Below, piece after piece: positions 10,437 through 12,654 of a stretch of DNA of 20,159 nucleotides (the first letter of the stretch is position 1; each line of letters begins with the position of its first letter). The DNA is from a bacterium (GTDB lineage Bacteria > Methylomirabilota > Methylomirabilia > CAVQYV01): NCBI GenBank assembly GCA_043800755.1, contig JAZDMQ010000129.1, forward strand, positions 1-20,159, in the 5' to 3' direction. The position numbers and the translations under genes are program-made. The notes under the pieces were generated by a model, which was not told the origin of the DNA, made no database searches, and worked only from the letters and a program-made list of their open reading frames with translations.

Positions 10437-11453
10437 TTACAGTTTCCTTCCCGCCGCCTCCGCGAATGGCCTTAATTCCTGCATGAGAGTGGAAAACCGT
10501 TTGGGTTTCAGCGATTGGATCCCGTCGCTGAAGGCCTCCTCGGGTCGCATGTGTACCTCGATCATGAGGCCATCCGCGCCCGCGGCAATGGCTGCCTTGG
10601 CCATCGGAGCCACATATTCCCAGTGGCCAGTGCCATGGCTGGGATCCACGAAGATGGGCAGATGGGTCAGCTTACGCAGCACTGGGACAGCATTCAGGTC
10701 CAGGGTGAAGCGGGTCTCAGTCTCGAAGGTCCGGATCCCCCTTTCGCAGAGGATTACCTCGTAATTGCCTTGGGAGAGGATGTACTCCGCAGACATCAGG
10801 TATTCTTTGATGGTGGTGGCCATGCCGCGCTTCAGGAGCACCGGCTTGTTGATTTCTCCCAGAGAGCGGAGCAAGGCGAAGTTCTGGACATTTCTGGCCC
10901 CCACTTGCAGGATGTCGGCATATTGCCCAACCAATTCCACATCCTTGGGGTTGACCACCTCGGTGACGATATAAAGGCCGGTCATCTCCTTCGCCTGGGC
11001 CAAGAGCTTGAGCCCCTCCTCTTCCAGGCCCTGGAAGGCGTAGGGTGAGGTCCTGGGCTTGAAGGCCCCCCCGCGCAGGATGCTCGCACCCGCCTCCTTG
11101 ACCGCCAGGGCGGTCTCCACGAGCTGGGCCTCGCTCTCCACCGAGCAGGGTCCGGCGATGATCGTGAGGCGATCCCCTCCGATCTCCAGGTCGCCGAGCT
11201 TGATGACGGTTCTATCCGGCTTGAATTCGCGGCTCGCCAGCTTGAAGGGCTGGAGGATGGGGACCACGCTCTCCACCCCGGGAAGGGACTCTAAGGATTG
11301 GAGGCGGGCCTTTCCCCGTTCATCCCCTATGGCCCCCACGACATTTCTCTGGGTCCCGCGAATGATATGGGGTTGATATCCTAATTCGTTGATCCTGCGA
11401 ATCACTTCCTGCAACTGCTCCTCGGGAGCCCCGGCACGCATCACGATGATCAT
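10437..11453 (-). CDS. aroF: 3-deoxy-7-phosphoheptulonate (DAHP) synthase, type I-beta with N-terminal ACT-like regulatory domain
   Basis: MIIVMR...[19 protein letters not shown] regulatory domain. Catalytic motifs [68 protein letters not shown] at 11460-11465. Confidence 0.96.
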
Positions 11454-11465
11454 CTTTTTCCTCCT

Positions 11466-11496
11466 AATAAAATGGCCACGGATGGTCTCCGTGGCC
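11466..11496 (-). terminator. Leader terminator 2, immediately before the aroF RBS
   Basis: Minus strand GGCCACGGA-GACCA-TCCGTGGCC (perfect 9-bp stem) followed by ATTTTATT. Confidence 0.7.
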
Positions 11497-11520
11497 TTGC
11501 AGGATGAGCGGTGTATTCCG

Positions 11521-11565
11521 AAAACCAGAAGGGGCCACGGTTTTTGCCGTCTATCCCGTGGCCCC
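11521..11565 (-). terminator. Leader terminator 1 (conditional attenuator hairpin)
   Basis: Minus strand GGGGCCACGG-(15 nt loop)-CCGTGGCCCC (perfect 10-bp stem) followed by TTCTGGTTTT. The long loop and interrupted U-tract make it atypical. Confidence 0.6.
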
Positions 11566-11615
11566 GGGGATTCAGCTAAATGGGCGTGCCTCCCGGGGAG
11601 CCGAGGGATAGACGG
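11547..11615 (-). promoter_or_regulatory. Putative antiterminator hairpin
   Basis: Minus strand CCGTCTATCCC-TCGGCTCCCCGGG (11615-11592) pairs with CCCCGGGGCCAC-GGGATAGACGG (11569-11547), including a perfect 11-bp stem. This sequesters the 5' arm of terminator 1. Confidence 0.7.
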
Positions 11616-11664
11616 TCATAAAATAGAACTGCCAACACCGTAGCTTCCCTCGTTCCTGTGCCAA
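11572..11664 (-). CDS. Putative aromatic-amino-acid attenuation leader peptide (30 aa)
   Basis: GGAGG (11677-11673), 8 nt spacer, TTG start. Translation [30 protein letters not shown]. The W-Q-F-Y-F codons (11634-11620) lie just 5' of the antiterminator arm. Confidence 0.72.
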
Positions 11665-11706
11665 CGCAATTTCCTCCCTAAGTCCCTCTCCATCGAGATG
11701 TTATTT

Positions 11707-11736
11707 CCTTTATCACCCTTCTCTCCCTCTTGTCAA
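11707..11736 (-). promoter_or_regulatory. Sigma70-type promoter for the aroF leader
   Basis: Minus strand TTGACA (11736-11731), 18 nt, then TAAAGG preceded by TGn. Perfect -35 and weak -10, about 30 nt upstream of the leader RBS. Confidence 0.5.
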
Positions 11737-11822
11737 GCCCTTTTACCCGTTTATCCCCTGTTCGCCCCGCCGACCTCCATTCCTCCTCCCTTTTTCCTGC
11801 CGGGGGAATTCGGCGAAAACTC

Positions 11823-11852
11823 TTTACTCCTCACCGCTTTCATGGTAAAAAT
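11823..11852 (+). promoter_or_regulatory. Possible sigma70 promoter for the yebC-ruv-que operon
   Basis: TTTACT-17 nt-TAAAAA(T) with TGn extension. RBS AAGGAGG lies upstream of ATG 11905. Confidence 0.35.
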
Positions 11853-11904
11853 AGCAACATAGAACCTTGCGGTTGAAAGCCTTGATGAAAGGAGGGGGGC
11901 AGAC

Positions 11905-12654
11905 ATGTCAGGACACTCGAAATGGGCTGGAATCAAGCATAAGAAGGCGAAAGTGGATGCCCAGAGAGGGCGCATTTTTACGAAGTTAATCAAAGAGATC
12001 ACCGTGGCGGCCCGAGTGGGCGGCGGGGACCCGGAAGCAAACGCTCGTCTGCGCACGGCCATCCAGAACGCCAAGGCAGGCAACATGCCGCAGGAGAATA
12101 TCCAGCGAGCCATCAAGAAGGGAACCGGCGAGCTGCCTGGGGTCACCTATGAGGAATTCTCCTATGAGGGGTATGGACCAGGTGGGGTGGCGGTCCTGTT
12201 GGAGGTGATGACGGACAACCGGAATCGCACCGCCCCGGAGATCCGCAAGATCTTCGCCAAGAGCGGGGGTAATTTGGGAGAATTGGGGTGCGTGAGTTGG
12301 ATGTTTGAGAAAAAGGGCTTGATCTCCGTGGACATGAGCAAGGTCGATGAAGAAAAATTGATGACGGTTGCCCTGGACGCTAGAGCACTGGATATCAGCA
12401 CCGGGGAGTCAACCTATGATGTGACTGCCACCCCCAAGGAGTTTGAAGCGGTGAAGGGCGCGGTCGCAGCGGCGGGAATCGAGATCTCGGCAGCAGAGAT
12501 CACCATGCTCCCCCAGACCTACATCAAGCTGGACGGAAAACAGGCCCAACAAATGCTCCATCTCATGGAGGAGCTCGAAGAACATGAGGATGTCCAGAAT
12601 GTCTACGCCAATTTCGATATCCCCGAAGAGGTCATGTTGAAGATGAGCGCTTAG
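11905..12654 (+). CDS. yebC: YebC/PmpR (TACO1) family protein
   Basis: [56 protein letters not shown]. Confidence 0.97.

Follow-up and report, generated by a model that had tools for sequence, protein, structure and literature searches.

Considered as a whole, the anatomy of the leader, its alternative folds and its conservation among relatives make it very probable that a type I-beta DAHP synthase gene is preceded by a ribosome-mediated leader-peptide transcription attenuator, built as a relay of five RNA segments. Here, the window denotes the whole stretch of DNA that was analysed, 20,159 nt in length; the element lies on its minus strand, in the divergent region upstream of the gene (Table 1). 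It combines the features by which leader-peptide attenuators are recognized: a short ORF with its own Shine-Dalgarno (SD) sequence; a cluster of codons for pathway end products; an intrinsic terminator; and an antiterminator that excludes it. The TTGACA box, the SD with its TTG start, the 30-codon ORF, the W-Q-F-Y-F run, the long hairpin and a terminator had all been reported by an initial annotation of this DNA and were recovered in place by a sequence check. Its central proposal, that ribosome stalling at the aromatic codons of a leader peptide tips an attenuator toward its antiterminator and away from its terminator, is strongly supported by comparison with relatives.

Table 1. Features of the DAHP synthase leader and of related elements (coordinates are those of the window unless a locus or contig is named).
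Feature	Position	Strand	Details
YebC-family gene	11905-12654	+	NF001030
Divergent region	between YebC-family gene 11905-12654 (+) and DAHP synthase gene 11453-10437 (-)		450 nt
-35 box, leader promoter	11736-11731	-	TTGACA; identified from sequence
-10-like hexamer	11713-11708	-	ATAAAG; 17-nt spacer from TTGACA, spacer ends in TG
SD of leader ORF	11678-11673	-	GGGAGG; 8 nt, then TTG start (11664)
Leader ORF	11664-11572	-	30 codons + stop; TTG start; stop at 11574-11572
Control codons	11634-11620	-	TGG-CAG-TTC-TAT-TTT (W-Q-F-Y-F)
Individual control codons	W 11634-11632; F 11628-11626; Y 11625-11623; F 11622-11620	-	
Antiterminator hairpin 1:2	11617-11546	-	72 nt; segment 1 11617-11591, segment 2 11570-11546; -43.8 kcal/mol, z -5.9
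T1 hairpin (2:3)	11565-11531, feature to 11521	-	GGGGCCACGG, 15-nt loop, CCGUGGCCCC, then UUCUGGUUUU; -22.2 kcal/mol
Proposed anti-T2 pairing 3:4	11540-11489	-	segment 3 CCGUGGCC with segment 4 GGCCACGG; -19.7 kcal/mol folded alone
T2 hairpin (4:5)	11496-11474, feature to 11466	-	GGCCACGGA, 5-nt loop, UCCGUGGCC, then AUUUUAUU
SD of DAHP synthase gene	11465-11460	-	AGGAGG, then ATG
DAHP synthase gene	11453-10437	-	type I-beta, 338 aa; NF006421 at 514 bits; TIGR01361 over residues 72-328
Metatranscriptome contigs	X3 11516-11699; X4 11458-11685; X2 11408-11557		
Paralogue element	G000:C87:16074-16224 (= L112 1501-1651)	+	R1 at 37 bits; outside the window
Pyruvate phosphate dikinase leaders	L116-L120, L132, L134, L142-L149, L151-L160		Rokubacteria-type genomes

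The regulated gene had been named aroF in the initial annotation. Its identity as a DAHP synthase stands; the protein is of type I-beta (NF006421), not the E. coli-type AroF. It matches PDB entries 1rzm and 3pg9 over its full length, and because this alignment includes the N-terminal regulatory-type domain, the enzyme is likely to be under allosteric control as well. Five loci (L020, L021, L022, L026 and L028) carry two paralogous DAHP synthase genes in tandem, with 62-68% identity to the query; the stop of the first gene overlaps the start of the second, and a single leader precedes the first.

A scan for consensus promoters called none at the leader, and the promoter assignment rests instead on conservation of the -35 box. 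Of the 73 leaders with enough flanking sequence, 71 have a CTTGAC[A/G/T] box at the corresponding position, with a TA-rich hexamer ~17 nt to its 3' side. Downstream, the equivalent leader ORFs of relatives have GAGGAGG or GGAGG followed by an ATG or GTG start. In L127, L128, L131, L088 and similar Rokubacteria-type leaders the leader ATG follows the -10-like hexamer by ~7-10 nt; with so little room between them, many of these peptides may be made from transcripts that are leaderless or almost so. The window also holds a second short ORF (11693-11616, minus strand; ATG at 11693, 25 codons), which overlaps the leader ORF in another frame and ends exactly where segment 1 begins; it has no SD and is not rich in aromatic codons.

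Four nucleotides separate the end of the final Phe codon from position 11615, the first paired base of the 72-nt hairpin, confirming the distance initially given. Just one Trp and one Tyr codon stand ahead of segment 1 in the window leader, and the stop codon lies 39 nt past segment 1, within the loop of hairpin 1:2.

Folding predictions describe two mutually exclusive states. When segment 1 is included, hairpin 1:2 forms and segment 3 is left single-stranded; when it is omitted, T1 and T2 both form, and T1 was seen only in such folds. A hairpin competing with a terminator, as described in the initial annotation, is thus present, with 1:2 sequestering eight of the ten bases of the T1 5' arm. 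That description was nevertheless incomplete: two hairpins are followed by U-runs, and T2 had gone unmentioned. T2 has a folding energy of -17.9 kcal/mol (z -6.1), is called by a terminator scan, and ends 8 nt 5' of the SD of the DAHP synthase gene. Neither T1 nor T2 pairs with that SD.

The proposed mechanism follows from these alternatives. Transcription would start ~35 nt 3' of the TTGACA box, and a ribosome would translate the 30-codon leader. If charged Phe-, Tyr- or Trp-tRNA were scarce, the ribosome would stall on W-Q-F-Y-F, just 5' of segment 1, leaving segment 1 to pair with segment 2 as the long antiterminator. Segment 3, kept free by this pairing, would then be available to segment 4 as the latter emerges; with 1:2 and 3:4 both formed, neither T1 nor T2 could fold, and RNA polymerase would read into the DAHP synthase gene. 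In the opposite case, when supply is good, the ribosome would run over segment 1 toward the stop codon in the hairpin loop; with segment 1 covered, 2:3 (T1) and 4:5 (T2) would form and transcription would end. As the stop codon lies so far past segment 1, a ribosome waiting there does not cover it, and the masking would have to come from a ribosome following close behind the polymerase.

With segments 3-5 alone, the equilibrium fold is T2 rather than 3:4, so that 3:4 could protect only kinetically, by pairing before segment 5 is made. The distribution of U-runs bears on the same point. When the 75 full-length leaders were classed by regular expression, 26 had a U-run after T2 only and 15, the window leader among them, after both T1 and T2; T1 stood alone with a U-run in 17 and alone without one in three, two had neither U-run, and the 12 leaders left unparsed by the pattern show T1 with a U-run by eye, like the T1-alone class. 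The T2-only class includes most Rokubacteria and the nearest relative of the window. Lacking a U-run in those 26 leaders, T1 could act there solely as an anti-antiterminator, which leaves 3:4 as the necessary route of control.

Covariation was examined on two alignments. RNAalifold applied to A1, the alignment of 21 leaders, predicts 1:2 and T2, with compensatory changes in 6 of 18 pairs. On alignment A3, pairing reaches 97.3% in the 8-bp core of helix 1:2 and 99.1% in T2, and both partners have changed in five of eight and four of eight pairs, respectively; for helix 3:4, 92.1% of cells are paired and two of eight pairs are changed on both sides. A3 was fitted to a model that holds 1:2 and T2 but not 3:4, and the fit favours the former two. 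The covariation score was reached by none of 500 shuffles, and slid controls were 29-61% paired, as against 95-99%. The register of the T1 5' arm differs from group to group on A3, so the T1 pairs were counted sequence by sequence at one variable arm position. There, 62 of 63 parsed leaders have a standard pair (A-U 41, G-C 16, G-U 5) and the remaining one is a mis-parse; A-C never occurs, and 12 leaders were not parsed. The five combinations found across the four arms (ATAT, GTAT, ATGC, GTGC and GCGC) are each compatible with 2:3, 3:4 and 4:5. Helices 1:2, 2:3 and 4:5 covary; complementarity in 3:4 would also be expected if T2 were a duplicate of T1.

The initial annotation had suggested looking in orthologues for a conserved short ORF with W/F/Y codons and for covarying stems, and the ORF, like the stems, is borne out by the comparison. 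The enzyme is present in all 41 same-class genomes searched, and the leader was compared at the best 30 matches, from 30 of the 41. The same leader parts lie upstream in 21 of these best 30 DAHP synthase loci. In five others (L009, L010 and L017-L019) the gene directly follows an upstream gene and there is no leader. In the remaining four, all of genus g10 (L008, L013, L015 and L016), the aromatic leader is deleted and T2 with its U-run is kept directly before the DAHP synthase SD; survival of T2 without the leader in these genomes suggests that T2 alone is leaky or weak, or is otherwise employed. In L015 the start of the leader ORF survives for a few codons.

A covariance model, R1, built from the 21 leaders in A1, matches 131 of 151 genomes sampled from Methylomirabilota, representing 52 of 54 genera; in genus g4, a match was found in just 4 of 18 genomes. 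Full-length copies number 75 in 76 loci. The 131/151 and 75-copy tallies take in the unpublished genomes G039, G058 and G100, and the 41-genome searches (for DAHP synthase and for aroA', below) take in G030 and G039, likewise unpublished; nothing depends on them. Locus L014, from G039, forms one row of A1 and of A3.

In 74 of the 75 leaders there is an ORF that has a start codon and whose stop precedes segment 3; the exception is cut by the end of its locus. Exactly one frame qualifies in 51 leaders and more than one in 23, where the more aromatic frame was taken, a choice that biases the aromatic count upward. With that bias, 73 of 74 leaders have at least three aromatic codons among the 12 before segment 1: seven leaders have 7, 23 have 6, 20 have 5, 16 have 4, seven have 3 and one has 2. 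Non-qualifying frames hold none in 60 cases, one in 42, two in 21 and three to five in 4. Overall, aromatic codons make up 42% of these 12 positions in the 74 leaders, as compared to 7.4% genome-wide. By residue, the control regions contain 23.5% F, 11.9% Y and 6.6% W; the corresponding values for the long ORFs of the genome are 3.8%, 2.5% and 1.1%. Segment 1 is read in different frames between groups (..GVCP.. or ..YRLPGGPMP), and the aromatic run always abuts it. This combination indicates conservation of segment 1 at the RNA level and of the aromatic run at the codon level. Neither the N-terminal nor the C-terminal part of the leader peptide is conserved among relatives.

The aromatic run was also tried as a stand-alone statistic and rejected, because such runs are common. 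Eight runs of at least four aromatic codons in five occur in the window, where ~4.3 per 20 kb would be expected from the genome rate and shuffling (20 replicates) gave 0-5. The run alone is thus not significant; its significance derives from its position and context and from its conservation.

The identity of the amino acid that is sensed requires closer consideration. The initial annotation proposed an OR-gate responding to all three aromatic amino acids. All three codons are indeed present in the window leader and in 34 of 74 leaders, and a three-way gate in this genome is possible; it is not a conserved property, as Tyr occurs in 62 of 74 leaders and Trp in 42, and the closest relative (G001, whose enzyme is 91% identical) reads F-G-K-F-V-F, with neither Trp nor Tyr ahead of segment 1. 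Phe, found in 74 of 74 leaders, appears from these sequences to be the constant control amino acid. One could go further and regard the element as a sensor of Phe, or of Phe and Tyr, in practice, in which the single Trp codon elicits no physiological response and there is no three-way gate. The codon counts and the G001 leader fit this proposal, as does the aroR leader of Corynebacterium glutamicum (F-Y-F), where transcription increased under Phe limitation but not with Tyr availability (Neshat et al. 2014, as described in PMC11802643). Against it, Trp accounts for 6.6% of control codons versus 1.1% genome-wide and occurs in 57% of leaders where ~12% would be expected, an enrichment indicating that Trp has been selected in many lineages; moreover, a ribosome stalled at the Trp codon would leave segment 1 fully free. 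We judge the restricted sensor to be a genuine possibility, but rather less than probable.

More radical departures would deny the ORF any sensing part, or the hairpins any part in termination. Segments GUCUGCCC, GCCACGGGGCAGAC and CCCGUGGC are unusually conserved across the phylum and in paralogues before unrelated genes, and T2 survives alone in the four g10 genomes, as might be expected if the conserved RNA were a riboswitch or a protein-binding leader. Yet the two alternative pairings account for every conserved stretch, and the 1:2 loop varies in length and sequence, which leaves no conserved unpaired core for a ligand. The Rfam search for a known leader family that the initial annotation called for (cmscan of 11300-12000, E up to 10) yielded just two sub-threshold microRNA matches, evidently by chance, and no Trp_leader, Phe_leader, His_leader, Leu_leader, Thr_leader or T-box. 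The ORF, its stop position and the aromatic enrichment are kept in 74 of 75 leaders despite differences of frame, and paralogues alter the codon content, not the scaffold; a riboswitch or protein-binding leader is accordingly very unlikely. Comparably improbable is a functional micropeptide, or hairpins that act on mRNA stability or translation instead of transcription termination. A G-V-C-P motif is frequent after the aromatic run, and T2 is close to the SD of the gene; however, G-V-C-P is gone in the groups that read segment 1 in another frame while the nucleotides are unchanged, the terminal parts of the peptide lack conservation, and both hairpins carry U-runs and leave the SD unpaired. 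The attenuator thus remains the preferred reading, with leader translation, ribosome stalling and the kinetic action of 3:4 its presumed working parts.

The element is a known kind of device for which no report was found in the phylum Methylomirabilota. The initial annotation knew of no description for this kind of gene, but one exists: in aroR-aroF of C. glutamicum, a leader peptide with Phe-Tyr-Phe lies upstream of the DAHP synthase gene (PMC11802643), as first predicted in PMC4046766. Compared by description as given in these sources, the likeness is functional: a short mixed-aromatic leader before DAHP synthase, with transcription raised on stalling. The two systems differ in phylum, and the Methylomirabilota leaders often add Trp, use a five-segment relay with two hairpins, and precede a type I-beta enzyme with an N-terminal domain. 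The C. glutamicum aroF product presumably belongs to another DAHP synthase subclass. A table entry also cites a suggestion, reportedly made in 1980, that E. coli aroF is controlled in a Tyr-tRNA-dependent manner. Beyond these two cases, no other DAHP synthase leader peptide or attenuator was found in the literature searched, nor any paper there pairing Methylomirabil* or Rokubacteria with 'leader peptide'; the main text of Seliverstov 2005 (PMC1262725) contains no aro gene.

Among classical attenuators, enterobacterial trpL and pheL share with this element a leader ORF, end-product codons, and an exclusive choice of antiterminator or terminator set by ribosome position. In contrast to the gene considered here, they serve branch-specific operons with codons for a single amino acid. 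The geometry also differs: there, the ribosome stalls inside segment 1 and 2:3 is the antiterminator, whereas here it would stall before segment 1 and 1:2 would be the antiterminator. Without translation, the trp leader defaults to termination, while the Methylomirabilota element would default to read-through. The E. coli ilvGMEDA leader (ilvL) is multivalent, with codons for branched-chain end products and a single terminator. Like ilvL, the present leader combines in one peptide the codons for more than one end product of the same pathway, here aromatic rather than branched-chain; the Leu/Ile/Val-rich pyruvate phosphate dikinase leaders described below are closer to ilvL than is the DAHP synthase leader. 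T-box leaders are said to occur on aromatic biosynthesis genes of Firmicutes, as reportedly described by Panina and colleagues in 2003. T-boxes likewise read out tRNA charging at the RNA level and choose between terminator and antiterminator on aromatic pathway genes, but they bind uncharged tRNA directly and require no translation, and the present leader has no T-box match.

What is new is the interlocked double terminator, a paralogue before the archaeal-type genes aroA' and aroB', and, in Rokubacteria, reuse of the scaffold upstream of pyruvate phosphate dikinase. In the 2.43-Mb genome, the GCCRYGG hairpin followed by a T-run is confined to two sites, this element and the paralogue. The leader of the paralogue has ..TFWYYYYS-stop at its end, and the same arrangement of segments follows, including two hairpins with U-runs; the paralogue precedes genes for ADH synthase (aroA', TIGR01949) and 3-dehydroquinate synthase II (aroB'), the archaeal-type pathway entry. 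The leader is kept in G001, with a compensating G-to-A change in segment 1. Among the 41 relatives searched (E up to 1e-40), aroA' was found only in the family of the window. At trpE-trpG-trpD of the same genome (L136 570-825, G000:C125), inspection by eye revealed no Trp-rich leader ORF or terminator.

Further users of the scaffold come from 40 second-tier R1 matches fetched in other genomes. Twenty-five precede pyruvate phosphate dikinase (TIGR01828) and have a conserved Leu/Ile/Val-rich leader, ..LSLGLILLALPGLPGASA-stop. Nine are further DAHP synthase leaders. Four have a Val-rich leader, ..AVVVAVRGVCP.. (L121, L122, L130 and L135), followed in L121, L122 and L135 by a small Cys-rich protein of 89-108 aa; the L130 contig ends first. 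The other two (L123 and L124) have the leader ..SAVVVVRACP.. and then a protein of 474-489 aa that, judged by eye, looks like a sigma-54-dependent activator.

A unifying possibility would be a phylum-specific, modular five-segment relay cassette (GUCUGCCC / GCCACGGGGCAGAC / CCCGUGGC / GCCACGG / CCGUGGC), duplicated and re-programmed by control-codon swaps: Phe-biased before DAHP synthase; Tyr-biased, F-W-Y-Y-Y-Y, before aroA'/aroB'; Leu/Ile/Val-rich before pyruvate phosphate dikinase; and Val-rich before the putative sigma-54 activator and the small Cys-rich protein. We advance this tentatively, as a conjecture that falls only somewhat short of probable. If all copies sense tRNA charging, stalling would regulate central carbon supply (PEP/pyruvate) and regulators, extending beyond biosynthetic operons; the two shikimate entry routes would in that case respond to different aromatic amino acids, in a manner resembling the three E. 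coli isoenzymes.

These data bear on how entry into aromatic amino-acid synthesis is controlled in a poorly studied and mostly uncultured phylum, which includes the NC10 methane oxidisers and soil Rokubacteria; the proposed control in the genomes searched is a translation-coupled RNA switch. The element represents a well-conserved RNA family with covarying stems that Rfam lacks and that could serve in metagenome annotation. It also offers a natural series for the evolution of attenuators, from a single terminator to a relay with a silent first hairpin and on to two terminators, with one scaffold serving different control codons.

Two studies yielded metatranscriptome contigs that cover the leader with at least 99% identity, and contig X2 bridges T2 into the DAHP synthase gene. 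Contig ends (11516, 11458, 11699 and 11685) differ from one study to the other. As such contigs show neither RNA ends nor levels, and the libraries may contain DNA, they give a weak hint that the leader region is transcribed. In three metatranscriptome runs a population variant is found at 11626, within the first Phe codon of the control run; the change, TTC to TTT, is synonymous.
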